A stretch of 47,208 bases of DNA from a virus. Lineage: Duplodnaviria; Heunggongvirae; Uroviricota; Caudoviricetes. Location: IMG/VR virus record IMGVR_UViG_2721755498_000001; one strand, given 5' to 3'. Both the position numbers and the translations under genes were made by a program. A model generated the notes under the pieces. It ran no database searches. It was not told where the DNA came from and worked only from the letters and a program-made list of their open reading frames with translations. Of this stretch, positions 409 through 46,839 are shown piece by piece (the first letter of the stretch is position 1; every line of letters starts with the position of its first letter).

Positions 409-441
409 TGGTGGAGCTGGCGGGAGTTGAACCCGAGTCCG
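409..441. repeat. attL: direct repeat of the ssrA 3' end (prophage boundary)
   Basis: 409-441 tggtggagctggcgggagttgaacccgAgtccg matches 46807-46839 at the ssrA 3' end with one mismatch; the first 27 bp are identical. Confidence 0.85.
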
Positions 442-513
442 TATTTTTATAATTAGCTGAAATAAAACGATTAATACTAACCATTTTATTCTGCGGATCT
501 TTTGCGGCTCCTT

Positions 514-1413
514 TTATGTCTGGATGTGGTCGTCAACACATCCTCTTTTAAATACAGGCGCTTTTACCTTAGTTGGATCATCTGTTTTAAAGATTTTCAA
601 TCGTTCACTGAAGAACATTACCTCAGATCCTTTGTACCGATCTTGAGCACTGTAGTTTATTCCATATACTAATGAGGATGTCTTATACATAGCTTGGATC
701 TCAGGAGTGTTATCGTAAGAAACAATCCAAGGCGTTTTAATATTATTCTGTACGACTTTTGCAACCCTAACATGATCATCATGATCATAATGGTTGATAT
801 ATAAGCCTTTACCTTTTATGTAATAAGGTGGATCCAAATAGGTTAATGAGTTTTGTGGCAATTGAATAACTATTTTTTTTATGAAATCAATTGCATCCAT
901 GTTATATAAATCTATTCTGTGACGATTTTCTGATATTCTATGGATTCGAGAAATCAAATCACTCTTATTATAGCGAGCGTCAAGCTTCCATTTCCCTTCT
1001 TGATTTTTACCGCCAATTACACCACCTTTTAATATTCCAGAACGATTTGTTCTATTGAGAAAAAAGGTTGAGAAACCAATTGTTAAAAGATCATGGTCTT
1101 TAGGATTATTAATTATATCTTTCTGCCTAAACCATTCATCCATTGTAACTTCTGTTCTTTCAACTAAAGAACATAATTGATCTGCATGATTTAATACACT
1201 GTGCCAAAAAGCATAAACAGAAATATTAATATCATTAAGGATGATTTTTTCAGCTGCATTTAGATGTAACAGTTTCAATGCTAAACCAGCACCCCCAGCA
1301 TATGGTTCGGCATAATGTATAGGCGAAAGATTATTTTCTTCAATAATCCGAAGCATGAAATTTGCAAGCTTGCCTTTACCGCCAGGATAGCGAAGTGGGG
1401 TGTTAAAACGCAT
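514..1413 (-). CDS. Dam-family (alpha-class, D12-like) DNA N6-adenine methyltransferase
   Basis: Motifs YPGGK, EPYAGGAG, LNRTNRSG and DPPYY align with E. coli Dam WAGGK / EPFVGAGS / LNRYGYNG / DPPY; RBS AGAGGT before the ATG; visibly AT-rich region. Confidence 0.85.
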   Translation of the reverse strand: MRFNTPLRYPGGKGKLANFMLRIIEENNLSPIHYAEPYAGGAGLALKLLHLNAAEKIILNDINISVYAFWHSVLNHADQLCSLVERTEVTMDEWFRQKDIINNPKDHDLLTIGFSTFFLNRTNRSGILKGGVIGGKNQEGKWKLDARYNKSDLISRIHRISENRHRIDLYNMDAIDFIKKIVIQLPQNSLTYLDPPYYIKGKGLYINHYDHDDHVRVAKVVQNNIKTPWIVSYDNTPEIQAMYKTSSLVYGINYSAQDRYKGSEVMFFSERLKIFKTDDPTKVKAPVFKRGCVDDHIQT

Positions 1414-1492
1414 ATGATACCTCTAAATGTCAGATCTAAAGTATATCAAAAAAAGGGCTTTATGGCCATCACATAAAACCCTTTTTAATCAA

Positions 1493-3226
1493 TTAGTTAT
1501 TTGACAGATATGATGAGATGGTAGCAGAATCGACACCATGTCCACTTATCATAATAACTTTAAGACTCTTTATTAGTTCATTCTTGAAGCTATCCGATTG
1601 CACAGGATTTTTCTCGACCCAATATCGATATGGGTTATCTTTAACTCGTCCTTTGACTTGGTCCTGAAATTGAGTCGTATGTGCAAAATCTTTAAACAGT
1701 TTTCTCACTCTCCCGCCATGATTTTTGTTAACTTTTTTATAATTATCTATAAGGATTTTTAAATCAATCGGAGCGTTACCAATCTTTAGCGTTGTAATTA
1801 TGTCTTTAGCTGTTTTCATAAAAACAGATTTTGTAAATTTATTTTTATTTTCCCAATATGCATCATCAGGTGGTAAATTATATAAAAACTCAAAAATCAT
1901 TTGATCTGGAGGTAAGGTGCTTGGAAGCAAACATAAGTTTTTTTCTTTTTTGGCTTTTTTTGCATTAGCACTGTTGTCGTGAACAACATCACCGTCTAAG
2001 ACGATCAAGCTTTTAGCTGTAAATTCTGGTATTTTTCTTGCCATTAAGTCAAGCATGGCAGAGCAGCTAATATTTATATTCCCTAATGGATTTAATATTT
2101 TATTTATTTTTCGATCTGTTATCAATTGTTTGAAAAAGTCGAAACCTTCTTTGTCTTCAAAATATACATTTGCTTTTGGAAGACAAATGTCATCATTAAT
2201 TTTTACAGTTTCAACATGTAAATCAGCGTGGATATCTGTCCATGAAAGATTATTCTTTGTTTTAATATCTCCATATGTGTCTGTAAGATATATTGTTTTA
2301 AAGCTATCACTATCTTGTTTTGAACGATTATAGATATCCTCTATTATTAATGGAGAGTGCGAGGTCATGATTATTTGCAGATCGTATTGTTTTGCTGCTT
2401 TAGTTAGAATATTAATTAACTCTAACTGTGCAGCAGGGAAAAGACCTGCATCGGCTTCATCAATTAACAATATTCCGCCATGATAATCAGAATAAGTTTC
2501 CTTCAATCTTTTAAATGAAAAAATTGCTTGGATTAATTGTCCAACATTATCTTCACCAACAGATACTGATTGGTGATCATAATTGTCACCATGGACAACC
2601 ATTGAATCGATAGTACCTTTTGTTGCTGTTACTGAGCTTCCATTGTTTTTTAGTAAGAGTTGGTTACTCATCATTCTGATTTCATCAGAATTTTCATTGA
2701 TGTACTGAACATCCCGTGTTGAGTAATTAGTCCTTAATGTAATAGGAAGAAGTCGTGCTAAGCTTAAAAAAATAACAGGATGAGTAACGTTTCTACTTTG
2801 GTTTTTTTCCGGTATTGAATCATTTCCCCTGACTACAGGCCTTGATTTATCTCTGTCACTGTAGCTGTATAAACCTAATGTTAGTTTTTCAAGATGTTTG
2901 TTCGATGCACCATCATAGACACTAATTTTGACGTCCATTGAACCAGGAACATCAAATTGTTCTGAAAGCCTAAAATGTTCGCTGAAAGCTGACTTGAAGC
3001 TGCCATTTGTTAATGTTTTATATTGTGTTAAATCAGTCTCAGGTTTTTTGGTAAAGTCCTTTGTAAAGCTAAATATTTGGGCGATAATGCCAAGAATTGT
3101 GGATTTAGATGTGCCATTTTTACCACAAATAACAGTTAGGCGAGAACCAAACTCGATGTTTATATTTTTCAGTCCGCGAAACTTCACAACATTTATATTT
3201 TTTAGTTTGGTAATTTGATTTGCCAT
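1493..3226 (-). CDS. ABC-type ATPase (OLD/GajA-like) with putative C-terminal TOPRIM nuclease domain
   Basis: Walker A GKNGTSKST, Walker B ILLIDEADAGL, H-loop TSHSP; C-terminal E...DxD pattern (YFEDKEG ... IVLDGD) typical of TOPRIM. Start taken at the internal ATG (MANQITK) with upstream GGAG; the ORF is open to 3277. AT-rich; co-oriented with int. Confidence 0.7.
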   Translation of the reverse strand: MANQITKLKNINVVKFRGLKNINIEFGSRLTVICGKNGTSKSTILGIIAQIFSFTKDFTKKPETDLTQYKTLTNGSFKSAFSEHFRLSEQFDVPGSMDVKISVYDGASNKHLEKLTLGLYSYSDRDKSRPVVRGNDSIPEKNQSRNVTHPVIFLSLARLLPITLRTNYSTRDVQYINENSDEIRMMSNQLLLKNNGSSVTATKGTIDSMVVHGDNYDHQSVSVGEDNVGQLIQAIFSFKRLKETYSDYHGGILLIDEADAGLFPAAQLELINILTKAAKQYDLQIIMTSHSPLIIEDIYNRSKQDSDSFKTIYLTDTYGDIKTKNNLSWTDIHADLHVETVKINDDICLPKANVYFEDKEGFDFFKQLITDRKINKILNPLGNINISCSAMLDLMARKIPEFTAKSLIVLDGDVVHDNSANAKKAKKEKNLCLLPSTLPPDQMIFEFLYNLPPDDAYWENKNKFTKSVFMKTAKDIITTLKIGNAPIDLKILIDNYKKVNKNHGGRVRKLFKDFAHTTQFQDQVKGRVKDNPYRYWVEKNPVQSDSFKNELIKSLKVIMISGHGVDSATISSYLSNN

Positions 3227-3250
3227 GTTTGTATCTTGCTCCGTAAAATG

Positions 3251-3267
3251 GCCACAAATTGTGGCCA
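3251..3267. promoter_or_regulatory. Perfect 17-bp palindrome between int stop and ATPase start (terminator or operator candidate)
   Basis: ggccacaaattgtggcc at 3251-3267; followed by ATTTTA on the minus strand. Confidence 0.3.
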
Positions 3268-3284
3268 ATAGTTTCATGCTTGGA

Positions 3285-4451
3285 TTATATTGTTATCTTC
3301 TTCAAGCTTGTTTGTCCATCATATTCCTTCAGATATGAGCCATAGTGCCTGAAAAGCATCTCCGGTCCTTTATGCCCCATTTGAGCTGCAAGCCAAAACA
3401 GGTTTGCTCCCCGGCTGATATGGCGGGTGGCGAATGTATGCCTAGTTTGATATGGATTTCTGTAACGAATACCTGCTTTTCGCAATGTTGGCACCCATGC
3501 TTTTTTTCTGATTGCATCAGCACTTGCCCATGGCTTATTGGTCTTTGGATCTTCAAAGACAGTAGCATCCTTCATGAATGTAAATGGCTTCTGGTTTATC
3601 AACGCCAACATTGCTTCTTCAGTCAGTTCAACTTTACGGGTACCGGCTTTTGTCTTTGTTCCTTTGATAACTCCGACAACACTTGCGCTCTGAACATGGG
3701 CTGTTTTTCCAACAAAGTCGATATCATGCCATCGTAGGGCACATAATTCAGAACTACGCAGGCCTGTATGTATGGCGAACCGGAACAGATTTTCCCATTG
3801 TTTGTTTCCGGCTGCTGCTAGTAATGCATCAACTTCTGCTGGTGATAGCGGATCAACCACATAGCTGCTTTCTGCTTCTGACTTATCACTTTGGTAGCGC
3901 GAAGCTGTTACTAACGATACGGGGTTAATTTGAAGTACCCCATCGGTCACGGCTTCATCAAGTGCTGACCGTAGGAAAGATAACTGGTTGCGAATGGTTT
4001 TTAAGGTTGTTTTCTGGCTTTGAATCCACGCTTTCAGGGTTGCTGGTGTTAATTCACTTGCAGGGCAAATGTGAAGTGAGGCTAACGCACTACGGCATTT
4101 TTTATAGCCACCAATCGTAGAGGGTGAAAGTTTTCTTGTTTCGCAGATTTCAAGATATTCGTCCAGGTACATCTTTACCGTTTTGCCTGCAGCAGCATTA
4201 CCAAAAATTTTCAAACGAGCAGAACGGGGAAAATATTCTGCATAAATGAATGTTCCCCTTTCGATCTTATTATGGATTTCGCCGAGTGTACGCTCGGCGT
4301 ATTTAATGTTCTTTGGTGTTACTTCCAGATTGGAAAGCGGCTCACGACATCTAACTCCTTTGTAGGTGAAAGTTATATTGATCGTTTCTCCCTGGCGGTG
4401 TTTCCTGATTGTTACGCCGCGCGGTAGTTTGAGCAGTTTTGTCTGGCCCAT
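3285..4451 (-). CDS. int: Phage integrase, tyrosine recombinase
   Basis: 388 aa; C-terminal catalytic region with R...H..R...Y context (HTFATRHISRGANLFWLAAQMGHKGPEMLFRHYGSY); next to xis and the att end. Confidence 0.9.
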   Translation of the reverse strand: MGQTKLLKLPRGVTIRKHRQGETINITFTYKGVRCREPLSNLEVTPKNIKYAERTLGEIHNKIERGTFIYAEYFPRSARLKIFGNAAAGKTVKMYLDEYLEICETRKLSPSTIGGYKKCRSALASLHICPASELTPATLKAWIQSQKTTLKTIRNQLSFLRSALDEAVTDGVLQINPVSLVTASRYQSDKSEAESSYVVDPLSPAEVDALLAAAGNKQWENLFRFAIHTGLRSSELCALRWHDIDFVGKTAHVQSASVVGVIKGTKTKAGTRKVELTEEAMLALINQKPFTFMKDATVFEDPKTNKPWASADAIRKKAWVPTLRKAGIRYRNPYQTRHTFATRHISRGANLFWLAAQMGHKGPEMLFRHYGSYLKEYDGQTSLKKITI

Positions 4452-4657
4452 TTTGCAACCTCACTAAGATCAATCCACCTCTCCTTAACGCCTTCAACCT
4501 TTAAAACCTGAACACCTTCACGCCAAACACCGCGCTGTACACGTTTGTTTATTGCTTCAGGAGTTTCGCCAGTTTCTTTGCAATAAGTTGAGATAGGAAC
4601 ACAATCGAGGTTCAGCATACGTTTCTCCATTATCCCGTCTGCACACGGGAGCAACAT
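4412..4657 (-). CDS. xis: Excisionase-like DNA-binding protein (start may be an internal ATG)
   Basis: Small ORF overlapping the int start by about 40 nt; winged-helix-like KERWIDLSEVAKWAR segment; classic xis-int overlap arrangement. Confidence 0.55.
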   Translation of the reverse strand: MLLPCADGIMEKRMLNLDCVPISTYCKETGETPEAINKRVQRGVWREGVQVLKVEGVKERWIDLSEVAKWARQNCSNYRAA

Positions 4658-4659
4658 TA

Positions 4660-5550
4660 TTAACGAATAGTGTCGTTACTTTGAAGTACAGCAAATGCCA
4701 TTAATACTTCTAAAGTATATCTTCTATAAAATTTAACAAAACCAACATAGAAAACATAGACGAAGAAAAAGCTAAGCATTATTGAAAGTAAACTATAAAG
4801 ATAATCACTATGAGTACATAATCGATAAATAAAGGTTGGAACTGATACCCAAAATGAAATTATAAAGATTAAACATATGTTTCTGCAAAAACCATATAAT
4901 GCAACATAGTTTTGAATTTTTGTTTGATGTTGTTTTGAAAACTCATAAACATAATGATATGCCAATCTGAAGAGATCATCATCAAGTCCGTTTTTATCTT
5001 GTAATAATTGGCGATTTGTTATGAACTTTTTCTCATAACCTTCTTTGATCATTAACCATGTTGTATTAGCTAAATGAAATGGTAGAGATTGAGAATAACA
5101 TAGTTTTTGTGTTATAAAATCCCATAGTATTATTGGACATAATACGCATTTGATTATGCGATTCTTTATTTTTGTTTTTTTATCAGCGCTTCTCTCATCG
5201 CATGATGGGCTACAAATGCTTTCTGAGGTATCTATCAATTTTTTAAATAGATATTTGGAAGGATATCCTAATTCTTTATTCATGTATTTTTCGATAAAAA
5301 ATGCTGACGTGATAGAAATAAAATGTCCAGCTATATAAGATATAATAACTATTGAAGCGTAGTTCAAAATGCCAAAGATTTGACTTTGACCTCTGAGCAA
5401 TTCACTTAAGTCAATAACAATATCTAGATCGAATGTCAAACCACAGAAATACATTAATAGGATAAAAAAACCACCTGGTATTAAATATCCAAGAAAGTCA
5501 TAGAATGAGAATGGATTTTGATTCATTGTTGCTCTCCAATAATTTTTCAA
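4660..5550 (-). CDS. Multi-pass membrane protein of unknown function (AT-rich moron)
   Basis: 296 aa with hydrophobic helices at both ends and a soluble middle; strongly AT-rich DNA unlike the flanking phage genes. Confidence 0.55.
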   Translation of the reverse strand: MKNYWRATMNQNPFSFYDFLGYLIPGGFFILLMYFCGLTFDLDIVIDLSELLRGQSQIFGILNYASIVIISYIAGHFISITSAFFIEKYMNKELGYPSKYLFKKLIDTSESICSPSCDERSADKKTKIKNRIIKCVLCPIILWDFITQKLCYSQSLPFHLANTTWLMIKEGYEKKFITNRQLLQDKNGLDDDLFRLAYHYVYEFSKQHQTKIQNYVALYGFCRNICLIFIISFWVSVPTFIYRLCTHSDYLYSLLSIMLSFFFVYVFYVGFVKFYRRYTLEVLMAFAVLQSNDTIR

Positions 5551-5634
5551 TTTGTAATATAACCTATATCTATATGTTAATAAATTACTTATATGTTCTT
5601 TTATGGCAGAGTTTGAATTCGTACGTGCTGATTT

Positions 5635-6186
5635 TTACGACTCAGTTAACTCTTTAAAGCGTTCCATAAACATCCCATAGGTATGGCCTGGCGACAGTGG
5701 AATAACTTTGAACATCTCTGTTGCCGGGATACCTTCCAGTACGGGCCAGAAAGAGCCATCATCAAGCCCGAGATCGCGGCGTTCGGTTGCCAGCATGATG
5801 AGATCGGCATATTTCACGGGCGTACTCATAACCGGGGGTAACCCGTATTTCTCACGGATTACGGCGTCTATTTTTTCTTCCATCCGTTTATAGTCAGGAA
5901 GAAGGCGTTTCAGTGGCGCCGGGATGTCCTGGCAATACGCTTCTGTTGCATCATGCATTAACGCTTCAAAAGCAAATTCCTGCGGTACCAGCTGGCTGCA
6001 AAGCACCGCATGTTGGGCGACGCTGTAGAAATGTGAAAGATGTCCTGCAAAGCGACAGATATTTGAAAGAGAAACCGCGATATCGTTAATAACGATGTCG
6101 TCTTTATTTATCCTGTCATAATAAAAATGCTTCCCGGAAAAAGTTTTAATAAATGACATTTTGTTCTCCACGTATATGCGCTGCAC
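5635..6186 (-). CDS. HD-domain phosphohydrolase-like protein, resembling CPS-53 YfdR
   Basis: 183 aa with H...HD...D pattern (FAGHLSHFY...LMHDATEAYCQD); assignment from memory of the YfdR family. Confidence 0.6.
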   Translation of the reverse strand: MQRIYVENKMSFIKTFSGKHFYYDRINKDDIVINDIAVSLSNICRFAGHLSHFYSVAQHAVLCSQLVPQEFAFEALMHDATEAYCQDIPAPLKRLLPDYKRMEEKIDAVIREKYGLPPVMSTPVKYADLIMLATERRDLGLDDGSFWPVLEGIPATEMFKVIPLSPGHTYGMFMERFKELTES

Positions 6187-6286
6187 CGCGCTGAATTCTG
6201 GTAAAAGAAAGCCCTCACCATCCGGCGATTATTGAGTCAATTACGTTTCCATAAATGCCCCCGCAGGGGCATTTGCAGTAATGAAA

Positions 6287-7111
6287 TCAGGCGGTAAAAG
6301 TACCAATAAAGGTTTCTACTTTGCTGTCCTTGAATTTCTCAACAAGCAGATCACGAAATTCGTTAGCCATTTCTTCCTGCACTGCTTCCAGCTGAATAAT
6401 GCGCAGAACCAGTACAGGACGATCGCCAGTGATAATGCTGAGGCGTAATTTAAACGGACGTTCTTTCAGGCCTTCAAACGGAACGCATTTAAATTCAAAT
6501 GCCACTGGCATAATATCTTTGGTCTTCGCTTCGACAGACTCCATCAGGGAGCGTTTGCCGCTGAAGTCATTGTCTTCAAAATCAGCGGTCTGGTTTGCTT
6601 CAATCGTGATTTTACGGACTGCCGCAGCCGCTTTTGTTGCCTGAATGGCATCACCATTAGCATCAAAGCCCACAAGGTAGTCGGCCCAGTCTTCAATCCA
6701 TTCTGCCAGTGACTTCTGGGAGTTACGCTCGCCGTTAACAGACAACAGAGCAGAGAACGGTGCTGTCTTTTTCAGTTTGAGAGTGGCGGTGTTATCTGCG
6801 TGACCTGGTTCATCAATAGTACCCAGGTTAAGCACACTGACGGCACGCATATTATCGGCATCGATAAAGCAGCGGGTGCCTTCATCTGCAAGATCTTTAG
6901 AATAACGGGTAAAGTCATCGATGCTGGCAGTGGAAAGTGCACCACGGAAACGGAAGCGATTTAAATTAAATTTTTCCAGATCATGAATGCGGAAATTCTC
7001 AGGCAATGCCACAGCATCGGCACCAATCTTACTGATAATTTCATTAACACCCTGAGCAGAAATAAGGGCATGGATTTGATTAATTGCGGTTGCGTCTAAG
7101 TTCTGAGACAT
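6287..7111 (-). CDS. Phage early protein, YfdQ-like (DUF2303-like)
   Basis: 274 aa, the same length as CPS-53 YfdQ; position in the leftward early operon; assignment from memory. Confidence 0.5.
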
Positions 7112-7176
7112 AATAAGTCCTCACTATATAAAGATATTCAGTGATGAGATAAATAATCAGTTAATTAAGAACGATA

Positions 7177-7539
7177 TTAATGACCTGCTGCGCGTAGTTT
7201 TCCGTCAGGTTCACCGGCAAGAGTCAGTAATTGTCCCTGGTCTTCCTGCAGAATAGTCAGGCGACCACCGCGATTGACATACATCGGTGTTTCGGTGGTG
7301 TCTTCTTCGGAAATTTTCCCGCGGTTAGTCGGGCGAACATATGAGAGTTTGTGTTTGATTTTCACACGGTTCTCATCAAATGGTTCGATTTCCAGGTTGA
7401 GCGAGACCTTACCTTTGGTTTTCGTGTTCATCACACCGGAAGCGACTTCACTGAGAACTGCGCCGATTTTGGTTTCAAATACGCCGCCGTCCAGCTCCCC
7501 GATAAATGCCTGCACATCAGTACTGCGTTCGCTAGCCAT
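7177..7539 (-). CDS. Small early protein, YfdP-like
   Basis: Start chosen at the internal ATG (MASERSTDV) preceded by GGAGCAGC; the longer 197-aa ORF upstream has no RBS and overlaps the structured leader. Confidence 0.5.
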   Translation of the reverse strand: MASERSTDVQAFIGELDGGVFETKIGAVLSEVASGVMNTKTKGKVSLNLEIEPFDENRVKIKHKLSYVRPTNRGKISEEDTTETPMYVNRGGRLTILQEDQGQLLTLAGEPDGKLRAAGH

Positions 7540-7587
7540 TTTGCTGCTCCTCATCATATCGACCCTGCAAGGTCGGTTAGTTTCTCC

Positions 7588-7723
7588 ACAAAACAGAGAA
7601 GAACACCTGCGGTGGCAGCCGCCCGGATGGATTGGGTTATGAGCCCGTCGTCCGGTGATGCTCTTCTCTGTTTTGTAAAAAGAGCGGTACCAGCCGGAAG
7701 CAAGGGTACAAACTGGTACCGCC
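7588..7723 (-). ncRNA. Structured non-coding leader / candidate sRNA in the leftward early transcript
   Basis: 15-bp perfect inverted repeat acaaaacagagaaga (7588-7602) / tcttctctgttttgt (7662-7676) with a GC-rich internal loop; second hairpin gcggtaccag (7683-7692) / ctggtaccgc (7714-7723); no ORF with an RBS in 7540-8240. Confidence 0.3.
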
Positions 7724-8170
7724 AAAGCAGTGGCTGTTGTGGTGGGGTTGTCACTCAGGCGTATGGTCAACCTGACAATCCGGTGTCCTCAACGGGGAAA
7801 GAGTAACCCCGCCATACTTACCGCCGCGCCATTTCGCGGATTACCACAACGCTGAGAGCACTTAGCCAGTTACAGCACCACACTTTGTCGCGGCTCCATA
7901 AATGCCCTCATCGTTGCACCCTGGTCTCTTCCCAGGCGTCAAACCGAATCGCCACGCTGGTTAGGCGTCTTATCAGCATCATCATTGACTTGCACATTCC
8001 GGCTACCTGGTTTGTTTGCCCGAGCAAGGAGTGGATTGTCCCCTTTAACGTCCCCAGACCGCTAACGACGCATGTGCCATACACCGTGTTACAACCAAAT
8101 TTTGTTAGTACCTTGTTTGTTTGTCTGGAAAGAAAGATAAAATGAAGTTGCGCATTATGCAAGTGTTTTT

Positions 8171-8241: not shown

Positions 8242-8934
8242 TTAATTGTGTCGCTTAAGGGTTTGTGACTGGCTGATTAAGACCTTTCCAAAGACCATAA
8301 ACCGGTGTTCATTTTCGCTGGTAATTCCCCATTCACGGTAAATCTGGTTATCAGAAATCACCAGTAGTTTGTCAGGTATCATTTGCAGTCGTTTGACATA
8401 AATTTTATCATCAAAACCAAATACATAGATACCATCTCCATCAAACTGATTGATACTGACATCAACGAAGATGAGATCTCCTGGCTCAATGGTTGGACAC
8501 ATACTGTCCCCACGAACGTTGATAACTTTAATGTGATTGGCTGGCCGTCCGCCAAACATCGATACAGCATTATCAGTTCTGTATTCAATGGCATGAATCA
8601 CATCAATGACATCACCGCCCTGGATAAGGCCATTTCCCGCACTGGCACTGACATCCAGCATTTCAATACGGAATACATCCTTCACCTGCGCAACATCCTC
8701 ACTAATACTGTTTTTACATACAGTATTACTTTTGACGTCTGAGGTAAAGAGATCTGCAATATCAACACCTAAGCTCCTGGCAATATTACTCAGGGCTTGT
8801 TCAGTGAATTGTTTCTGCTTACCTGTTTCCAGGCGTGAGATATTCGCCGCATCCACTCCTATTGCTTCAGCGAGATCGGCGATCTTCATGTTCTTCGCCT
8901 GGCGAAGTTGTCTGACTCGGTTTCCTATGTTCAT
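8242..8934 (-). CDS. cI: CI-like prophage repressor (HTH plus S24 LexA-like peptidase domain)
   Basis: N-terminal HTH (MKIADLAEAIGVDAANISRLETG) and C-terminal S24 region (VRGDSMCPTIEPGDLIFVD ... KRL); divergent from cro. Confidence 0.9.
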   Translation of the reverse strand: MNIGNRVRQLRQAKNMKIADLAEAIGVDAANISRLETGKQKQFTEQALSNIARSLGVDIADLFTSDVKSNTVCKNSISEDVAQVKDVFRIEMLDVSASAGNGLIQGGDVIDVIHAIEYRTDNAVSMFGGRPANHIKVINVRGDSMCPTIEPGDLIFVDVSINQFDGDGIYVFGFDDKIYVKRLQMIPDKLLVISDNQIYREWGITSENEHRFMVFGKVLISQSQTLKRHN

Positions 8935-9031
8935 GCGTTTATTACATTTCTTTATTGCGCGTTAAGCAAATCAACTTGCGCAAAATATTTGCGTGAAATA
9001 ATATGCTCATCACGCAATATGTGGAGGTCAT
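8935..9031. promoter_or_regulatory. Divergent promoter/operator region (oR, pRM/pR) between cI and cro
   Basis: Repeated TTGCG-containing sites: ttgcgcgttaagcaa (8955-8969), ttgcgcaaaatatttgcgtgaa (8976-8997), cacgcaatatgtg (9010-9022); RBS GGAGG before the cro ATG. Confidence 0.6.
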
Positions 9032-9292
9032 ATGCAATCACCATTACGGAATGTGCGTAAGGCGCACGGATTTACTTTGCAGCATGTTGCTGCTGGCGTT
9101 CAGGTCAATCCAGCGACGCTGAGTCGTATTGAAAGACTGGAACAAGTTCCATCTATCGATCTTGCAGAACGTCTGGCCAATTTTTTTAAGGGTGAAATCA
9201 GCGAAATGCAGATTCTTTATCCGGCACGTTTTCAATCTAGCCAAAACCAGAATGGGTTTAAACCACAGGAACAGGAGGTAAGCCGTGGGTAA
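9032..9292 (+). CDS. cro: Cro-like HTH regulator
   Basis: 86 aa, HTH (GFTLQHVAAGVQVNPATLSRIE); divergent partner of cI. Confidence 0.75.
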   Translation: MQSPLRNVRKAHGFTLQHVAAGVQVNPATLSRIERLEQVPSIDLAERLANFFKGEISEMQILYPARFQSSQNQNGFKPQEQEVSRG

Positions 9293-9836
9293 TCATCACT
9301 GGAAAGTGGAAAAACAGCCTGAGTGGTACGTGAAAGCTGTCAGAAAAACTATCGCAAAGTTGCCGGGTGGTTACGCTGAAGCAGCTGACTGGCTGGATGT
9401 AACAGAGAACGCATTATTTAACCGCCTTCGTGCCGATGGCGATCAGATTTTCCCGCTGGGATGGGCAATGATTTTGCAACGTGCTGGTGGAACTCACTTC
9501 ATTGCTGACGCTGTGGCGCAGTCTGCAAATGGCGTCTTTGTGTCTCTTCCTGACGTCGAGGATGTGGACAACGCCGATATTAACCAGCGCCTGCTGGAAG
9601 TCATTGAACAGATCGGCAGTTATTCAAAACAGATTCGTTCAGCAATTGAAGACGGTGTAGTGGAACCGCATGAGAAGACAGCAATTAACGACGAGCTGTA
9701 CCTCTCAATTTCGAAGCTGCAGGAGCATGCAGCACTGGTCTACAAAATTTTTTGCATTTCAGAAAGTAATGACGCCCGCGAGTGTGCAGCTCCGGGCGCC
9801 GTGGCGTGTCGTGACTGTGGAGAAACTAACGCATGA
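9285..9836 (+). CDS. Early regulatory protein of uncertain function (cII-position gene)
   Basis: 183 aa immediately after cro; function not assignable from sequence alone. Confidence 0.35.
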
Positions 9837-10180
9837 ACAGTTTAACAACACACTACCGTCGCTCGCAACTGATTGCGCTTCCTGTACCGGGTGGAAAAGC
9901 GAAGGTGGAGTATTGCTATGCAGTAAATGTACTAGGTGACAGGGAAATTGTAACCCACAGCTTTGCAGAGTGGGCTGTGGGTGATTTCAACCGGCAGAAG
10001 GAGACAGTCCTTTGCGACAAGTTAACCGCTGGTTCAAAGATCACTACGGAGTGCCCGTCAGAGTCATTCGTTGGGAGCCGGAAACACAACGGGTTATCTA
10101 CCTCCGCGAAGGCTATGAGCATGAGTGCTTCAGCCCGCTCGAACAGTTTCGTCGTAAATTCAGGGAAGTAGAGGTCGGTC

Positions 10181-11137: not shown

Positions 11138-11628
11138 TCATGAGTCTTTTGAATGAAGTTCAGAAATTCATTGAAGCCCATCCGGGGTGTACTTCCGGAG
11201 ACATTGCGGATGCTTTTGCAGGTTACTCACGGCAGCGCGTTCTGCAGTCAGCAAGCAAGTTACGTCAGAGTGGGCGTGTGGCTCACCGTTGTGAAGGAGA
11301 TACACGCAGACATTTCCCACGCCTGACTGAGAGAGCGCAGGAGCCGGAACCACAACCAGTTCGTGAAACCAGACCTGTGCGCAATTTCTATGTCGGCACT
11401 AACGATCCCCGGGTGATTTTGTGCCTGACCCGCCAGGCGGAAGAACTGGAGTCCAGGGGCTTATACCGTCGTGCTGCAACGGTGTGGATGGCGGCATTCC
11501 GTGAAAGCCACTCCCAGCCAGAACGAAACAATTTTCTGGCGCGTCGTGAGCGGTGCTTACGGAAAAGCAGCAAGCGCGCTGCATCGGGTGAAGAGTGGTA
11601 TCTGTCAGGGAATTACGTGGGGGCTTAA
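11134..11628 (+). CDS. Hypothetical regulatory protein, possibly PerC-like
   Basis: 164 aa; LYRRAATVWMAAFRES segment recalled as PerC-like; stop overlaps the next start (TAATG). Confidence 0.35.
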   Translation: MIMSLLNEVQKFIEAHPGCTSGDIADAFAGYSRQRVLQSASKLRQSGRVAHRCEGDTRRHFPRLTERAQEPEPQPVRETRPVRNFYVGTNDPRVILCLTRQAEELESRGLYRRAATVWMAAFRESHSQPERNNFLARRERCLRKSSKRAASGEEWYLSGNYVGA

Positions 11629-12053: not shown

Positions 12054-12111
12054 GGAAAACGCAAGGCTGCGTGCAACCCACTGGTTACATGAGAGGGACC
12101 TGAAAGTATGA
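11884..12111 (+). CDS. Small protein with LexA-like winged-helix DNA-binding domain (no peptidase domain)
   Basis: Strong RBS AGGAGGTG before the ATG; [35 protein letters not shown] aligns with LexA [34 protein letters not shown]. Confidence 0.5.
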
Positions 12112-12497: not shown

Positions 12498-12516
12498 TTA
12501 AGAGGAGAAACGAAGT

Positions 12517-13314: not shown

Positions 13315-13315
13315 G

Positions 13316-14311: not shown

Positions 14312-14324
14312 GTGGAGAACGAGC

Positions 14325-28822: not shown

Positions 28823-28830
28823 CGCGGGAA

Positions 28831-32526: not shown

Positions 32527-32535
32527 GAGGCTCTG

Positions 32536-33234: not shown

Positions 33235-33239
33235 ATCCC

Positions 33240-34522: not shown

Positions 34523-34579
34523 TGCAAAATGTTTTATGTGAAACCGCCTGCGGGCGGTTTTGTCGTTTATGGAGCGTGA

Positions 34580-37981
<3,402 letters not shown>

Positions 37982-38047
37982 ATTTTATAACCCAGAACGG
38001 GCGTCAGAAATGACGCCTTTTTTATTGCAGAAAAGCGAGAGGTAATT

Positions 38048-38647
38048 ATGCGTAAACTTTATGCCGCCATTTTGTCCGCAGCCATTTGTCTGGCCGTATC
38101 CGGTGCGCCTGCATGGGCGTCTGAACATCAGTCCACGCTGAGCGCGGGGTATCTTCATGCCCGGACGAACGTTCCCGGCAGTGATGATCTGAACGGGATT
38201 AACGTGAAATACCGTTATGAGTTTACGGACACACTGGGGATGGTGACGTCGTTCAGCTATGCAGGAGACAAGAATCGCCAGATTACCCGTTACAGCGATA
38301 CCCGCTGGCATGAAGATTCCGTTCGTAACCGCTGGTTCAGCGTGATGGCGGGGCCGTCTGTACGCGTGAATGAATGGTTCAGCGCGTATGCGATGGCGGG
38401 TGTGGCTTACAGCCGTGTGTCGACTTTCTCCGGGGATTATCTCCGCGTAACTGACAACAAGGGGAAAACGCACGATGTGCTGACCGGAAGTGATGACGGT
38501 CGCCACAGCAACACGTCTCTGGCGTGGGGGGCTGGCGTGCAGTTTAACCCGACCGAATCCGTGGCCATTGATATTGCTTATGAAGGCTCCGGCAGTGGCG
38601 ACTGGCGCACTGACGGTTTCATCGTGGGTGTCGGTTATAAGTTCTGA
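38048..38647 (+). CDS. lom: Lom-like outer-membrane protein (Ail/OmpX/PagC family)
   Basis: Signal peptide and beta-barrel-like alternating pattern ending in the aromatic residue YKF; immediately after J as in lambda. Confidence 0.8.
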
Positions 38648-38711
38648 TTAGCCAGGTAACACAGTGTTATGACAGCCCGCCGTTTCAGGTGGGCTTTTTT
38701 GTGGGGTGAAT

Positions 38712-41700
38712 ATGGCAGTAAAAATTTCAGGTGTACTGAAAGACGGCACAGGAAAACCGGTACAGAACTGCACAATCCAGCTGAAAGCAAAACGTAACAG
38801 TACCACGGTGGTGGTGAACACGCTGGCATCTGAAAATCCGGATGAAGCCGGGCGTTACAGTATGGACGTTGAGTACGGTCAGTACAGCGTTATTCTGTTG
38901 GTGGAAGGATTCCCGCCGTCACATGCCGGGACCATCACAGTGTATGAAGATTCCCGACCCGGTACGCTGAATGATTTTCTCGGTGCCATGACGGAGGATG
39001 ATGCCCGTCCGGAGGCACTGCGCCGTTTTGAGCTGATGGTGGAAGAGGTGGCGCGTAACGCGTCCGTGGTGGCACAGAACACGGCAGCCGCGAAGAAGTC
39101 AGCCAGTGATGCCAGCACATCAGCCCGTGAGGCGGCAACCCATGCGACTGATGCTGCAGGCTCAGCACGCGCAGCCAGCACATCAGCCGGGCAGGCCGCT
39201 TCGTCGGCTCAGTCAGCGTCTTCCAGCGCAGGAACGGCATCAACAAAGGCCACTGAAGCGGAAAAAAGTGCTGCCGCTGCAGAGTCCTCAAAAAGCGCGG
39301 CAGCTACCAGTGCCGGTGCGGCGAAAACGTCAGAAACGAATGCGGCAGCGTCACAAAAATCTGCAGCCACTTCTGCATCCGCAGCGACCACAAAGGCGTC
39401 AGAAGCTGCCACCTCAGCCCGGGATGCGGCGGCCTCAAAAGAGGCAGCGAAATCATCAGAAACGAACGCATCATCAAGCGCCAGTAGTGCCGCTTCCTCG
39501 GCAACGGCGGCAGGAAATTCCGCGAAGGCGGCAAAAACGTCCGAGACGAACGCCAGGTCTTCTGAAACGGCAGCGGGACAGAGTGCCTCAGCTGCGGCAG
39601 GCTCAAAAACAGCGGCTGCATCATCTGCCAGTGCCGCATCAACAAGTGCCGGGCAGGCCTCAGCCAGTGCCACCGCTGCCGGAAAGTCGGCAGAAAGTGC
39701 CGCATCGTCTGCTTCAACAGCCACAACGAAGGCTGGCGAAGCCACTGAACAGGCCAGCGCAGCAGCGAGGTCAGCTTCCGCAGCGAAGACATCCGAAACG
39801 AACGCGAAAGCGTCGGAAACCCGTGCAGAATCCTCAAAAACGGCTGCCGCATCGTCAGCCAGTTCGGCGGCGTCATCGGCATCATCGGCGTCTGCTTCAA
39901 AAGATGAGGCGACCAGACAGGCGTCAGCAGCGAAGGGCAGCGCCACGACGGCATCCACGAAGGCGACAGAGGCAGCTGGCAGTGCGACGGCGGCAGCTCA
40001 GAGCAAAAGTACGGCGGAATCTGCAGCAACGCGCGCTGAGACAGCGGCAAAACGGGCAGAGGATATTGCATCCGCCGTGGCGCTTGAGGATGCAAGTACG
40101 ACGAAAAAGGGGATAGTACAGCTCAGCAGTGCGACCAACAGCACGTCTGAAACGCTGGCGGCAACGCCAAAGGCAGTAAAAGCAGCCTATGACAATGCAG
40201 AGAAACGTCTGCAGAAAGACCAGAACGGCGCTGATATACCCGATAAGGGACGCTTCCTGAACAACATTAACGCGGTCAGTAAAACAGACTTTGCTGATAA
40301 GCGTGGTATGCGTTATGTGCGGGTTAACGCTCCTGCAGGTGCAACATCTGGAAAATATTACCCTGTTGTTGTTATGCGTTCTGCTGGCTCAGTAAGCGAA
40401 CTGGCATCAAGGGTCATTATCACCACGGCAACGCGAACCGCAGACGATCCGATGAATAACTGCGAGTTTAACGGATTTGTTATGCCTGGTGGCTGGACTG
40501 ACAGGGGGCGTTATGCTTATGGAATGTTCTGGCAATATCAAAACAATGAACGAGCCATCCACTCAATAATGATGAGTAATAAGGGCGATGATTTGCGCTC
40601 TGTGTTCTATGTTGATGGCGCTGCTTTCCCTGTTTTTGCGTTCATCGAAGATGGCCTGTCAATATCCGCACCTGGTGCTGATCTCGTTGTTAATGATACG
40701 ACCTATAAGTTTGGGGCAACAAATCCGGCGACTGAATGTATCGCGGCGGACGTTATCCTTGATTTTAAGAGTGGGCGTGGTTTTTATGAGTCCCATTCGT
40801 TAATCGTTAACGATAACTTGTCGTGCAAAAAACTTTTTGCCACAGACGAAATTGTAGCGCGTGGTGGTAATCAGATTCGAATGATAGGTGGGGAGTATGG
40901 TGCATTATGGCGTAATGATGGCGCTAAAACTTACCTGCTGCTTACCAATCAAGGTGATGTTTATGGTGGCTGGAATACATTAAGACCGTTTGCTATTGAT
41001 AACGCAACCGGCGAACTGGTTATTGGAACCAAACTGTCCGCAAGTCTGAACGGTAACGCATTGACAGCAACAAAGCTGCAAACGCCAAGACTGGTTTCTG
41101 GTGTTGAGTTTGATGGTTCCAGAGATATTACTTTAACCGCCGCGCATGTGGCTGCTTTTGCCAGAAGGGCAACGGATACATATGCCGATGCGGATGGTGG
41201 CGTTCCCTGGAATGCCGAATCAGGTGCTTACAATGTCACCCGCTCTGGCGACAGCTATATTCTGGTTAACTTCTATACCGGAGTCGGAAGTTGCCGGACC
41301 TTGCAGATGAAGGCGCATTACAGAAATGGTGGTCTGTTCTACCGTTCTTCAAGAGACGGTTATGGTTTTGAGGAAGACTGGGCAGAAGTTTATACCTCGA
41401 AAAATCTTCCACCAGAAAGCTACCCAGTCGGCGCACCAATCCCGTGGCCATCAGATACCGTTCCGTCTGGTTATGCCCTGATGCAGGGGCAGACTTTTGA
41501 CAAATCTGCTTACCCGAAACTTGCAGCCGCTTATCCGTCAGGCGTGATCCCTGATATGCGTGGCTGGACGATTAAGGGCAAACCTGCCAGTGGTCGGGCC
41601 GTATTGTCTCAGGAACAGGACGGCATTAAATCGCATACCCACAGCGCCAGCGCATCCAGTACGGATTTGGGGACGAAAACCACATCGTCGTTTGATTACG

Positions 41701-42062
41701 GCACTAAATCCACGAATAACACTGGTGCGCATACCCATAGTGTTAGCGGTACGGCTGCTTCAGCCGGTGCACATACCCATTCGATGACATTTGTTTCAGG
41801 TGGTTCCAGTGGTGCTCCGGGAAGTGGATCACCTGATTATTCTAAATACAGTGTTAACACTTCTTCTGCAGGCGCTCATACGCACTCTGTATCGGGTACT
41901 GCTGCAAGCGCAGGTGCACACGCACATACTGTCGGTATTGGTGCTCATACGCACTCCGTTGCGATTGGCTCACATGGACACACCATCACCGTTAACGCTG
42001 CTGGTAACGCGGAAAACACCGTCAAAAACATCGCATTTAACTATATTGTGAGGCTTGCATAA
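38712..42062 (+). CDS. stf: Side tail fibre protein with Ala/Ser/Thr-rich repeats and C-terminal His-x-His repeats
   Basis: Low-complexity central region with repeated AAKTSETNA units; C-terminal GAHTHS repeats; followed by tfa. Confidence 0.8.
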
Positions 42063-42646
42063 TGGTATTCAGAATGAGTGAACAACCACGGACCATAACA
42101 ATTTATAATCTGCTGGCCGGAACTAATGAATTTATTGGTGAAGGTGATGCATATATTCCGCCTCATACAGGTCTGCCAGCAAACAGTACCGATATTGCAC
42201 CGCCAGATATTCCGGCAGGCTTCGTGGCTGTTTTCAACAGTGATGAGGCATCGTGGCATCTCGTTGAAGATCATCGGGGTAAAACGGTTTATGACGTAGC
42301 GTCAGGGGACGCGTTATTTATTTCTGAACTCGGTCCGTTACCGGAAAATGTTACCTGGTTATCGCCGGAAGGGGAGTTTCAGAAGTGGAACGGCACAGCC
42401 TGGGTGAAAGATGCAGAAGCAGAAAAACTGTTCCGGATCCGGGAGGCGGAAGAAACAAAAAACAGCCTGATGCAGGTAGCCAGTGAGCATATTGCGCCAC
42501 TTCAGGATGCTGTAGATCTGGAAATCGCAACGGAGGAAGAAACCTCATTGCTGGAAGCCTGGAAAAAGTATCGGGTGTTGCTGAACCGTGTTGATACATC
42601 AACTGCACCGGATATTGAGTGGCCAGAAGAACCAGACACCGTGTAA
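42062..42646 (+). CDS. tfa: Tail fibre assembly protein
   Basis: 194 aa immediately after stf; N-terminal region resembles Tfa. Confidence 0.75.
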
Positions 42647-42715: not shown

Positions 42716-43534
<819 letters not shown>

Positions 43535-43895
43535 TCATTGCAAGGGCTCACAACCAGTAGTGTTGAGAAAACCATCGGAGAAATGAGGCTAAGCCTTTGA
43601 ATTTACATAGTACAAAAAAGATACTTTTCCTCATAATGTGAGCTAATTTTATGTTTCGTTTGATGATTGGACCGGTCTCGAAAACCGTAGACACATAGTA
43701 TGCGTTAATTTATGAACAAACTACTTGTCTGCTGTTTTTCTGTCATTAGTCGTATATAGAATGATTCTCTATGCCTAACAAAGCATCACCAGTGCTAGAT
43801 TACGTTGTAGTCACTGTTTAAATATCCAGATAAAACATTTCCTTCTGGGTTGAATGAGTGATAAAGTTTCACCCATTAGACCCCTTGGAGGAATT

Positions 43896-45329
43896 ATGTC
43901 TGAATTTGAAGTGTTGGCACAGCATCTGCTGAAGGAAGCCGAGGCGGAAGAAAAGCTGCGACAGGAAAATGATAAAAAGCTTATCGAGAAAGTGCTGGAA
44001 ATCTATGATCAGAAGTATGTGGCTGAATTACTGAGAAAAGTCGGAAAAAATGAGTGGAGCCGTGAAACCATTAACCGCTGGATTAATGGCAAGTGTTTAC
44101 CAAAATCGTTGACTTCAGTAGAAGAGTCTCTTCTGCGTAAGATGCTACCAGAACCACCTGCAAACCATCCGGAATATGCTTTCCGCTTCATTGACTTATT
44201 TGCTGGAATTGGAGGGATACGGAAAGGTTTTGAGGCCATTGGAGGCCAGTGTGTTTTTACCAGTGAATGGAATAAAGATGCTGTGCGTACATACAAGGCC
44301 AACTGGTTTAACGATGAACAGGTGCATAAATTCAATCTCGATATTCGGGAAGTCACGCTGAGTGATAAAACCGATGTATTGGAAACGGATGCTTATGCAT
44401 ATATTGATGAGCATGTGCCGGATCATGATGTGCTTCTTGCGGGGTTCCCGTGCCAGCCATTTAGCCTTGCTGGTGTTAGTAAGAAAAACTCACTTGGTCG
44501 TGCGCATGGTTTTGAATGTGAAGCACAAGGAACACTTTTTTTTGACGTGGCACGTATTATACGAGCAAAAAAACCGGCAATTTTTGTGCTGGAAAATGTC
44601 AAAAATCTGAAGAGCCATGATAAGGGTAAAACTTTCAAAGTCATTATGGAGACCCTTGACGAGCTGGGCTACGAAGTTGCCGATGCTGCAGAAATGGGAA
44701 AAAACGATCCAAAGATTATCGATGGGAAGCATTTTTTGCCTCAGCATCGTGAACGCATTGTTCTGGTCGGATTTAGACGAGATCTGAATATTCACAAGGG
44801 GTTTACCTTGCGTGATATCAGTCGTTTTTATCCGGAACACCGCCCATCATTTGGTGAATTGCTGGAGCCTGTAGTCGACAGTAAATATATACTTACGCCA
44901 AAACTATGGGAGTACCTTTATAACTACGCCAAAAAGCATGCAGCCAAGGGGAATGGTTTTGGCTTTGGGTTGGTCAATCCTGAGAATAAGGAAAGCATTG
45001 CACGCACACTTTCTGCCAGATATCACAAAGACGGATCAGAAATTCTTATTGATCGTGGTTGGGATATGGCAACGGGAGAGGCTGACTTTATGAATGAGAG
45101 TAATCAGGCTCGTCGACCACGCAGGCTGACTCCCCGAGAGTGCGCACGCCTTATGGGATTTGAAAAACCTGGAGGGAAACCATTCCGTATTCCGGTTTCA
45201 GATACTCAGTCATATCGGCAGTTCGGTAACTCAGTTGTGGTGCCAGTATTTGAAGCTGTTGCCAGACTTCTGGAACCCTATATCCTCAAAGCTGTTTCTG
45301 CTGATGCTGGTAAGACTGGGCAGCCTTGA
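43896..45329 (+). CDS. DNA cytosine-5 methyltransferase, Dcm / M.EcoRII-like
   Basis: Motif [16 protein letters not shown], motif [10 protein letters not shown], motif VI ENVKNL; N-terminal region close to E. coli Dcm; 477 aa from the RBS-supported ATG, the length recalled for M.EcoRII. Confidence 0.9.
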
Positions 45330-45363
45330 GAACATCTCCCGGCCTTTTAAGCCGGGAGTCAGC

Positions 45364-46578
45364 CTATGATAGTTCAGCGTAAAGCTCTATCAGCTCAGTA
45401 ATGAATGCTCCGAGCGTTATTAATTCTTCTCTAACTGCTTCTGGGTATTTTTTATGTAAAGTTGATGGTACAACGAGTCTGACACCCGCATCTTTCATTT
45501 CTCGGTATTGTGCTGAAGAAACACCTTCTTGCAGTGTAAATAAATGTACCTGATGGATTTTATCTGCTTCATTCAGTATCTGACGCCAGCGATCTTTGCA
45601 GGTGGTCTTTACTGCCAGCATACGTAAGTTTTCTACAGGAAATTCAACGTTATGATATGCCTCTGCTGAAGGAAACAGGAAATCTGGTTTTTTATTACCT
45701 TCAGTAACTGCCTGAGTGGAGAAATGCCGTAGTCCGTGCTCGATAAAAAGCTTCTCTAGGTGAAGTTCAAGTGATTTGCCTGCCCTTGATTTACGTCGAT
45801 TACTGACAGAGTTGGCTAATGCAATAAACTCATCTACAGAATCGAATCCTTTCTTAATAATATCAAGAACATGTAATTCCTCGACGAGTAGAAAAATATC
45901 ATACTCGACACGCCGACGGTCAATCAGTTGCTCATCTGGATCCTTGGAGTTTTTAGCATAATGGCCAGCAGCATATTGAATAATTTCGTTTCCAGAAGGA
46001 AAACGCTTCTTCCAGTCTTCAGGAATAACATATTTATGATTTACTGGAGTTTGCTGAAGAGACAATCCGCCCAAAATTTGTCCGGCAGGGCCGGAAATTA
46101 GGGTTCCAGGTATGATTTCGCCAATAGCAGACTCGATGATATCCTCTTCATCGGGATTGACGCAGACCCATATATCTACCTCGGAACAGTCAGTGTTCTG
46201 TTCGTTTAACCTGAAAGCAAGAATTGTGAGGGCTCCTGTATTTTCAGGGTTCTGTAATGGACTTCCTCTCCCCCAGCGCGTAATTCTTTTTTCGTTTCGG
46301 GTCTTACCAAAATAACGGTTGTTGTAATAAATTGCGCGTGCTTGGGTATCAGGGCAATCATGGGATGATACATGCGCAGTAAGGAAGACTGAAGGGTTCA
46401 GTTCGCGAGTATGATTGATAGATGGAAAAAGCTTTTCAACGATATTTGAGGGGATATAAAGTCCGACCTGATGGCCACCTGTTGCGCCTGTGTCGTTTGC
46501 AGAAAGGCGTTTGATGTAGATAAAGTAATTCCCGCTTGCGATATCAAGCAGCCAGTTATGAAAAACCGACATATACAT
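45364..46578 (-). CDS. Type IIE restriction endonuclease, EcoRII-like
   Basis: 404 aa, the length recalled for R.EcoRII; convergent with a Dcm-like methyltransferase; identity from memory, not search-confirmed. Confidence 0.65.
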   Translation of the reverse strand: MYMSVFHNWLLDIASGNYFIYIKRLSANDTGATGGHQVGLYIPSNIVEKLFPSINHTRELNPSVFLTAHVSSHDCPDTQARAIYYNNRYFGKTRNEKRITRWGRGSPLQNPENTGALTILAFRLNEQNTDCSEVDIWVCVNPDEEDIIESAIGEIIPGTLISGPAGQILGGLSLQQTPVNHKYVIPEDWKKRFPSGNEIIQYAAGHYAKNSKDPDEQLIDRRRVEYDIFLLVEELHVLDIIKKGFDSVDEFIALANSVSNRRKSRAGKSLELHLEKLFIEHGLRHFSTQAVTEGNKKPDFLFPSAEAYHNVEFPVENLRMLAVKTTCKDRWRQILNEADKIHQVHLFTLQEGVSSAQYREMKDAGVRLVVPSTLHKKYPEAVREELITLGAFITELIELYAELS

Positions 46579-46651
46579 CCCTTTGTTAACATACAGTCAG
46601 GGTTAACATTTTTCCATAGTTATAGATAAGCGGCTAGGAACTTAAGGGAAA

Positions 46652-46683
46652 AACAAAAAGCCCGCATAAGCGGGCTTTTGTGT
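46652..46683 (-). terminator. Rho-independent terminator downstream of ssrA (bidirectional hairpin)
   Basis: aaagcccgc-ataa-gcgggcttt flanked by an A-tract and a T-tract. Confidence 0.55.
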
Positions 46684-46806
46684 CACTCGAGAGCCGCGGC
46701 TCCTTTGCGTATCCTTTTTTGTCTCCTCACCGTCTGGTCGGTGTCCTGCTGAGACTGCTAACTTCCTGTTTTTGTTGGTGTTGTCCTTACACCGTCCAAT
46801 CATGAT

Positions 46807-46839
46807 TGGTGGAGCTGGCGGGAGTTGAACCCGCGTCCG
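46807..46839. repeat. attR core: ssrA 3' end, duplicated at 409-441
   Basis: Matches 409-441 with one mismatch. Confidence 0.85.

Follow-up and report, generated by a model that had tools for sequence, protein, structure and literature searches.

The 3' end of ssrA, the gene for transfer-messenger RNA (tmRNA), is a well-understood integration site for a family of temperate phages, whose integration at exactly this gene has been demonstrated experimentally. In E. coli K-12 lysogens of the Citrobacter rodentium phage phiNP, the attP and attB sites were mapped to exactly a 25-mer at the ssrA 3' end, and the integration regenerates an intact ssrA (PMC6456863). For Escherichia phage LLS, integration into the ssrA 3' end was deduced by its authors (PMC12315714), and tandem arrays of elements have been catalogued at tDNA sites (Islander, PMC4383910). 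Herein, we analyzed a stretch of 47,208 nucleotides (IMG/VR record IMGVR_UViG_2721755498_000001, hereafter the window), which had been predicted from its letters to contain a complete lambdoid prophage integrated into ssrA, and established the boundaries, gene content, homologies and empty site of this element. In all probability, it is a 46.4-kb lambdoid temperate phage of E. coli whose insertion into the ssrA 3' end took place by tyrosine-integrase site-specific recombination. To judge from its genes and att sequences, it is a member of the phiNP/LLS-type ssrA-integrating temperate phages with structural modules from the mEp460 group.

As summarized in Table 1, ARAGORN identified a single tmRNA gene in the window, with the tag peptide ANDENYALAA. 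The 33-mer TGGTGGAGCTGGCGGGAGTTGAACCCG[A/C]GTCCG occurs at 409-441 and 46807-46839, the latter being the last 33 nucleotides of ssrA (TGGTGGAGCTGGCGGGAGTTGAACCCGCGTCCG in the plus-strand reading), and the sole difference between the copies is A436 versus C46834. An extra T common to 408 and 46806 lengthens the repeat to 34 bp. The 23-nucleotide core was present in exactly two copies in the window, even when three mismatches were allowed, and in none of 100 shuffles, and both repeats start with the 25-mer TGGTGGAGCTGGCGGGAGTTGAACC, the attP core mapped for phiNP. The predicted attP junction runs from 46806 through TGGTGGAGCTGGCGGGAGTTGAACCCGAGTCCG to 442, and the predicted attB junction from 408 through a C-type core to 46840.

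To this repeat structure, comparison with other genomes added an empty site. Window 1-408 directly abuts the ssrA 3' end, which is of the C type, in E. coli C2 and in 27 further complete genomes, with nothing between. In the junction alignment, C2 consists of the left flank, the C-type core and the ssrA body; the left junction of the window consists of the left flank, the A-type core and a phage arm, and its right junction of a phage arm, the C-type core and the ssrA body. Because the left flank joins the C-type core and the ssrA body directly in C2, this strain represents the empty site for the element. Compared with it, the window has gained 46.4 kb of inserted DNA, and its ssrA locus holds prophages arrayed in tandem. 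The ssrA-containing part of the window (46806-47208) was 99.75% identical to the corresponding region of C2. The locus also displays each part of the Islander signature, namely an intact tmRNA gene with a displaced 3' fragment in the same orientation on its downstream side, a tyrosine integrase (3285-4451, minus strand) between the gene and the fragment, and an empty-site allele in related genomes (C2 and the 27 others).

The reconstructed attP was also found in a free phage. When the window ends were joined in silico and used as a query against phage genomes, the right arm, core and left arm proved to be homologous and contiguous in the isolated, plaque-forming phage LLS, next to an 86%-identical integrase, and the depositors of LLS had annotated this contiguous stretch as a tmRNA pseudogene and attP. 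Together with the empty site and the mapping of phiNP, this result bears out the central claim of the original prediction, and all of its coordinates were correct: the intact tmRNA gene at 46807-47169 (minus strand in ARAGORN), the 33-bp direct repeats including the displaced ssrA 3' end at 409-441, and their single C-to-A difference. The alignment with an ssrA locus free of the prophage, which had been proposed as a check, is the one that C2 provided.

The single mismatch between the repeats is informative as to the crossover. The A-type sequence and the arm following it (GTATTTTTATAATTAGC...) are also found with the lambdoid prophage in strains 2 HS-C and M10, in which the left neighbor is a CP4-57-type integrase gene or its remnant, unlike the left flank of the window. 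As the A-type sequence travels with the prophage across different left flanks, the A is the phage's own attP sequence rather than the product of decay in a displaced host copy, and the repeat at 409-441 is likewise tied to the element by these genomes. The related attP sites each have one mismatch to ssrA just past the 25-mer, at position 26 in phiNP, 28 in the window phage and 30 in LLS; from these positions, strand exchange must fall within the first 25-27 bp. In the proposed mechanism, the phage attP carries a copy of the ssrA 3' end, and strand exchange would take place between bases 1 and 25-27 of TGGTGGAGCTGGCGGGAGTTGAACC(CG), which correspond to the acceptor stem and T arm of tmRNA, presumably around the dyad CGGG-AGTTGAA-CCCG encoding the T arm. 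Such a site is classed by Islander as the T-loop/T-stem-junction type (PMC4383910). The exchange would rebuild ssrA at attR with phage-supplied terminal nucleotides and displace the previous 3' end to attL, and a P2-like prophage would already have been at the site when the lambdoid phage integrated, leaving the two prophages now in tandem. The 11-mer GCGGCTCCTTT, found once to the left and once to the right of the att core in matching orientation (504-514 and 46696-46706), is a weak candidate for an arm-type integrase site, its occurrence being only marginally above chance; it was not seen in the LLS left-arm sequence examined.

Table 1. Features of the window, with positions in the 47,208-nucleotide stretch (a dot marks features listed without a strand)
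Feature	Position	Strand	Evidence
Right end of the P2/186-like prophage, neighboring element	1-408	+	100% identity to C2 between ogr and ssrA
attL core, displaced copy of the last 33 nucleotides of ssrA; A436 phage-derived	409-441	-	Repeat and junction alignments
P-side phage arm of attP, non-coding	442-513	.	Homologous to the sequence after the core in LLS attP
D12-class N6-adenine DNA methyltransferase, PD-Lambda-5_B family, cargo	514-1413	-	Pfam MethyltransfD12 4e-19; PADLOC PD-Lambda-5_B 1e-123
OLD-family ATP-dependent nuclease with ABC ATPase, predicted Toprim and helical C-terminal domain, cargo	1493-3277	-	Pfam AAA_15/AAA_21, AlphaFold, fold search
Tyrosine integrase, N-terminal arm-binding domain (DUF3596/Arm-DNA-bind_2)	3285-4451	-	Pfam Phage_integrase and Arm-DNA-bind_2
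Excisionase, overlapping the int start	4412-4657	-	phrog_2917, 8e-45
Early-left operon: phrog_12528 (unknown function), YfdR 5'-deoxynucleotidase, YfdQ, YfdP-like	4660-7770	-	Pfam, PHROGs
CI-type repressor, S24 autocleavage domain	8242-8934	-	PHROGs
Cro-like protein	9032-9292	+	PHROGs
CII-like protein	9285-9836	+	PHROGs
Replication/nin-like region: O-like initiator, PerC-like activator, truncated Dam, RusA, KilA-N, DUF968/HNH, Q	10181-15077	+	PHROGs
Q antiterminator	14295-15077	+	PHROGs
N6/N4 DNA methyltransferase	16361-17413	+	Family matches
Methyltransferase followed by holin, endolysin and Rz spanin	16361-18633	+	Family matches
Putative cos region, GGGCGGGAGCGT	19480-19495	.	Ends of related phage records
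Packaging/head: TerS, TerL, head-tail adaptor, portal, protease-major capsid fusion, decoration protein	19669-26364	+	PHROGs
Lambda-type tail (Z, U, V, G, T, tape measure, M, L, K, I, J), Lom and fiber genes	26357-42646	+	PHROGs
Side tail fiber	38706-42062	+	PHROGs
Tail-fiber assembly protein	within 26357-42646	+	PHROGs
PD-T4-3/CMoRE, GIY-YIG type IV restriction endonuclease, cargo	42716-43489	-	PADLOC 7.6e-140
EcoRII restriction-modification: Dcm-type C5 methylase, cargo	43854-45329	+	Pfam DNA_methylase and DNA_meth_N
EcoRII restriction-modification: EcoRII endonuclease, cargo	45364-46578	-	Pfam EcoRII-N and EcoRII-C
P' side arm of attP, a phage-borne ssrA trailer copy	46652-46806	-	Alignment to island-free loci and LLS
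attR core, 3' end of functional ssrA; about the last 25 nucleotides (46807-46831) predicted to be phage-supplied	46807-46839	-	Junction alignments, phiNP mapping (PMC6456863)
ssrA, intact tmRNA gene	46807-47169	-	ARAGORN

The roughly 46.4 kb between the repeats carry a full set of genes from int to the tail fibers, as had been predicted and as the family matches bore out. The order is lambda-like throughout (int-xis, early left, cI/cro, replication, nin, Q, lysis, cos-terminase, head, tail, fiber, att), each of the expected lambdoid functions has a full-length family match, and the lengths of the open reading frames (ORFs) equal those of the annotated coding sequences in the 97-98% identical prophage that adjoins ssrA in strain M10. 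The integration module is of the phiNP/LLS type, consisting of an orthologous integrase with DUF3596 and an overlapping xis; the Int translation carries the Arg, His-x-x-Arg and Tyr motifs and is 93% and 86% identical at the amino acid level to the integrases of phiNP and LLS, respectively. The immunity region spans 8242-9836, and the CI translation shows the GDSM serine motif and a lysine (in VKRL). The packaging/head module was 99% identical at the DNA level to those of phages mEp460 and Ayreon, and the early-left gene types are those described for the LLS class (PMC12315714). Two small ORFs in moron positions, one after Q (15358-15783, plus strand) and the other between Rz and cos (19014-19352, minus strand), had no informative family match, and the segment between Rz and cos (18634-19480) differs from those of M10 and KKa014, which are otherwise 97-98% identical relatives.

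Several points weigh against the reading as a complete lambdoid phage, and some of them would also suit a correctly delimited but cryptic (grounded) prophage that no longer excises or forms particles, as many lambdoid prophages of E. coli are defective. Neither lambda N nor P or another helicase loader was found among the annotated ORFs, and the early-left operon contained no Exo/SAP/Gam-type families and hence no Rec module. The ORF at 11595-12053 covers only the first ~60 residues of phage Dam methylase (PF05869, TIGR01712), a remnant in the nin-like region that amounts to minor decay in a non-essential part of the genome. Moreover, the A436 mismatch adjoins the core, cos can only be deduced from the ends of related phage records, and the exact configuration of the window, with the P2-like reverse transcriptase flank followed by this prophage, was not among the matches listed for the complete-genome set.

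On the other side, the structural, lysis, regulatory and integration ORFs are of full length in comparison with both the family profiles and the annotated relatives. The absence of N, P and Rec is not evidence of a defect, because the viable LLS has the same N-less, P-less and Rec-less architecture; it forms plaques without an N homologue, a helicase loader or Rec, and is classed by its authors as lambdoid (PMC12315714). As a substantial subset of lambdoid phages has an O homologue only according to the same authors (PMC12315714), N and P are not strictly defining of the lambdoid phages. The mismatch next to the core belongs to attP, and the active phages phiNP (position 26) and LLS (position 30) carry equivalents. 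We thus regard a grounded prophage as unlikely, although it deserves consideration, and prefer a phage genome that is apparently intact and typical in its lambdoid mosaicism, from which we infer that the prophage is still inducible.

The features that accompany the missing Rec module are likewise those of the 'no Rec module, high Chi' class of lambdoid phages. The Chi octamer GCTGGTGG occurs 12 times on the plus strand and once on the minus strand (9483-23812), mostly in the active orientation, and nine of the copies lie within 9483-17398, in the 10 kb upstream of the presumed cos and hence toward the right end of the virion map. The latter site was placed at ~19.48 kb, since the linear cdtI, Tritos and mEp460_4F5 phage records all start at window 19479-19483, which points to cos at this position; the start of the mEp460 record was rejected as a cos candidate because it coincides with the terS start, and the exact lambda/LLS cos pattern GGGCGGCGNNCT was absent from the window. 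Taken as a whole, the genome is a mosaic of a phiNP/LLS-type int-xis-att module, an mEp460-type head, a lambda-type tail and a Rec-less early region with many Chi sites.

Three apparent defense modules, which we infer to be active, occupy the variable slots on either side of attP, at both ends of the element. At the left end, the integrase lies far from the intact ssrA and is separated from attL by two genes (514-1413 and 1493-3277), as had been predicted; these had been described as cargo, and to this description can be added that the cargo at both ends seems to consist of defense systems. The second of the two genes, whose likely start gives 1493-3226, encodes an N-terminal ABC ATPase domain, and its C-terminal 255 amino acids (1493-2260) had no Pfam or PADLOC match. 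In the AlphaFold model of this protein (pLDDT 89), the best full-length fold matches were the Thermus OLD nuclease (6P74) and Gabija GajA, with TM-scores of only ~0.3, and E357/D358 and D411/D413 (Glu and DxD) were invariant in 32 homologues. The predicted fold and the invariant Glu/DxD residues indicate that the C-terminal region comprises a Toprim domain followed by a helical domain, and on these grounds we call the protein an OLD-family ATPase-Toprim nuclease, its Toprim assignment resting on the predicted fold and the motifs. An identification of the ATPase as PD-Lambda-5_A was rejected, since it gave only weak P-loop matches, with PtuA as the best (3e-20) and PD-Lambda-5_A not among the top matches; of the two-gene PD-Lambda-5 system, the window thus contains the B component and not the A component.

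The pairing of an OLD-type nuclease with a Dam-like methylase is widespread in Enterobacterales, and phiNP has it conserved next to int as well. We found no experimental characterization of this pair, and the nuclease partner has no close PADLOC match. The pair may constitute an uncharacterized methylation-gated defense system distinct from PD-Lambda-5. The module running from attL through the methylase and the OLD gene to int was present in at least 84 complete E. coli genomes, and most of the right half of the element in 122.

At the right end, PD-T4-3/CMoRE is a single-gene GIY-YIG enzyme, for which the family match covers residues 1-256 of 256, and this copy is nearly identical to the crystallized O157:H7 protein (PDB 9U75; 570 bits over 257 amino acids). 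CMoRE, a type IV enzyme, cleaves DNA with 5-hydroxymethylcytosine (5hmC) or glucosyl-5hmC and is specific for such DNA (PMC12923530). Next to it lies a type IIE restriction-modification system of the EcoRII type, in which the two-domain endonuclease (810 bits over residues 1-403 to EcoRII, PDB 1NA6) adjoins a Dcm-type C5 methylase. Three intact DNA methyltransferase genes, namely D12 N6-adenine (514-1413), N6/N4 (16361-17413) and Dcm-type C5 (43854-45329), are found in this one prophage, which also encodes the type IV enzyme aimed at modified cytosine.

Between the EcoRII gene and the 3' end of ssrA lie 155 bp (46652-46806) that closely match the native DNA following ssrA in island-free loci, namely glaH-ssrA (DEF10) and ypjA-ssrA (MS6198), with identities of 95.5-96.1% over megablast matches of 305-309 bp that include 154 bp of ssrA. 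In the free phage LLS, a less conserved version of this stretch directly adjoins the core. Adding this trailer copy of ~155 bp to the ssrA end, the phage shares ~190 bp with the host locus, and the sequence common to it and the native locus extends well beyond the 33 bp of the original prediction. A junction query consisting of 167 bp of the right arm and 154 bp of ssrA was covered to at least 80% in 2527 of the 5426 complete E. coli genomes, among which empty and occupied sites are mixed. A terminator scan detected a strong terminator, co-oriented with ssrA, at 46679-46656. The trailer copy would thus be expected to restore the ssrA terminator after integration, and it could restore termination as well as processing of the 3' end of ssrA, a very highly transcribed gene, insulating the prophage from read-through. 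It could also offer enough homology for RecA-mediated, integrase-independent insertion or loss: upon integration into an empty site, the prophage would sit between imperfect repeats of ~190 bp, long enough for RecA-mediated loss. The joint reading that this ~190-bp, non-minimal attP copy is functional and that the OLD/methylase pair is an uncharacterized defense system is offered tentatively, as a possible one.

The resemblance of 46652-46806 to native DNA downstream of ssrA (~96% identity in island-free strains), as well as the fall in G+C content to 41-46% within 42716-46806, could be taken to mean that this block is a separate islet or residual chromosomal DNA, and that the true right boundary lies near the tail-fiber assembly gene. 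However, the block falls inside the insertion as defined by the C2 empty site, has neither an integrase nor repeats of its own, and ends in a trailer copy that is contiguous with the attP core in free LLS. It also travels with the phage: the KKa014 prophage at thrW (tRNA-Thr), which has a different integrase, carries the same PD-T4-3 and EcoRII block in the same position, after the same tail-fiber genes, from which it follows that the right-hand block is phage cargo and not a separate islet. A separate origin of the block is therefore very improbable. The KKa014 prophage ends in a 23-bp remnant of the ssrA-like core, beyond which the homology stops. We considered whether matches ending at 46833, such as that of KKa014, might be secondary-site integrations and rejected this interpretation, as KKa014 contains a mosaic prophage with a different integrase; it is no evidence on the attB of this element. 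The same stop at 46833 applies to about half of the best matches to the right half elsewhere, suggesting that the att core, or a point near it, served as a recombination joint.

The left flank of the window (1-408) belongs to a P2-like prophage, of which it forms the right end. The final 99 codons of a cargo gene for a retron-type reverse transcriptase occupy positions 1-300 (Pfam RVT_1), with a weak match to retron reverse transcriptase models, and in C2 the corresponding end of the P2/186-like prophage consists of ogr, a 57-amino-acid ORF, the 257-amino-acid retron-type reverse transcriptase and then the att site. This neighbor also uses ssrA, and in C2 it duplicates 47 bp of the gene and stands in tandem with a CP4-57-like island, such that three elements are probably stacked at ssrA in the source strain. 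The flank is accordingly a second prophage rather than host chromosome. That the repeat at 409-441, which coincides with the boundary to a P2-like prophage using the same gene, belongs to this neighbor or arose by chance is hardly credible, since the P2-like end joins C-type ssrA sequence in C2, the lambdoid element is what carries the A-type sequence and the arm after it in the window as in strains with unrelated left flanks, and the chance expectation for the core was zero in the shuffles.

The main value of these results for the locus lies in its annotation, namely prophage boundaries at single-nucleotide resolution and the identification of a tandem prophage array at ssrA. In addition, the crossover is placed in a 25-27-bp block common to the att sites, and three defense modules are assigned to a mobile phage. 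The element exemplifies known themes (ssrA as a hot spot for unrelated integrases, defense genes in att-proximal slots, and lambdoid modular mosaicism), and by itself the finding opens no new question.

Among the described systems, phiNP (OR565852; Petty 2011, Magaziner 2019) shares with the window phage the 93%-identical integrase with its overlapping xis, the same 25-bp attP core from the ssrA end, and an 87%-identical OLD-type ATPase orthologue directly downstream of int, between int and att. In contrast, phiNP is described as a myovirus with tail genes that differ from those of the window phage, the cargo at its other end consists of a dinI-like gene, hicAB and an acetyltransferase, and its attP mismatch lies at position 26 instead of 28. 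LLS resembles the window phage in its contiguous attP with copies of the ssrA end and trailer and in its integrase (86% identical), and the class to which it belongs (PMC12315714) in the yfdR/yfdQ/yfdP-type early-left operon, the lack of Rec, the O-like initiator as the only such replication gene, and abundant, strongly oriented Chi sites (12 versus 1 in the window phage). It differs in having an mEp213-type head, invertible tail fibers, different morons and a single unknown gene between attP and int, where the window phage has an mEp460-type head and defense cargo. The likeness to Enterobacteria phage mEp460 and Ayreon resides in their packaging and head genes; in the attP search, Ayreon gave a partial right-arm match only, and neither phage matched the attP core or the left arm. 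Finally, CP4-57 and the P2/186-like prophages at ssrA share the target gene and the logic of the displaced 3' fragment, and they stand in tandem with phages of this type in strains C2, M10 and 2 HS-C. Their integrases are nevertheless unrelated, IntA being only 17% identical to LLS Int according to the LLS authors (PMC12315714), and while the P2-like element duplicates 47 bp of ssrA and the CP4-57-type islands have int beside the intact gene, the window phage carries its int at the far end.

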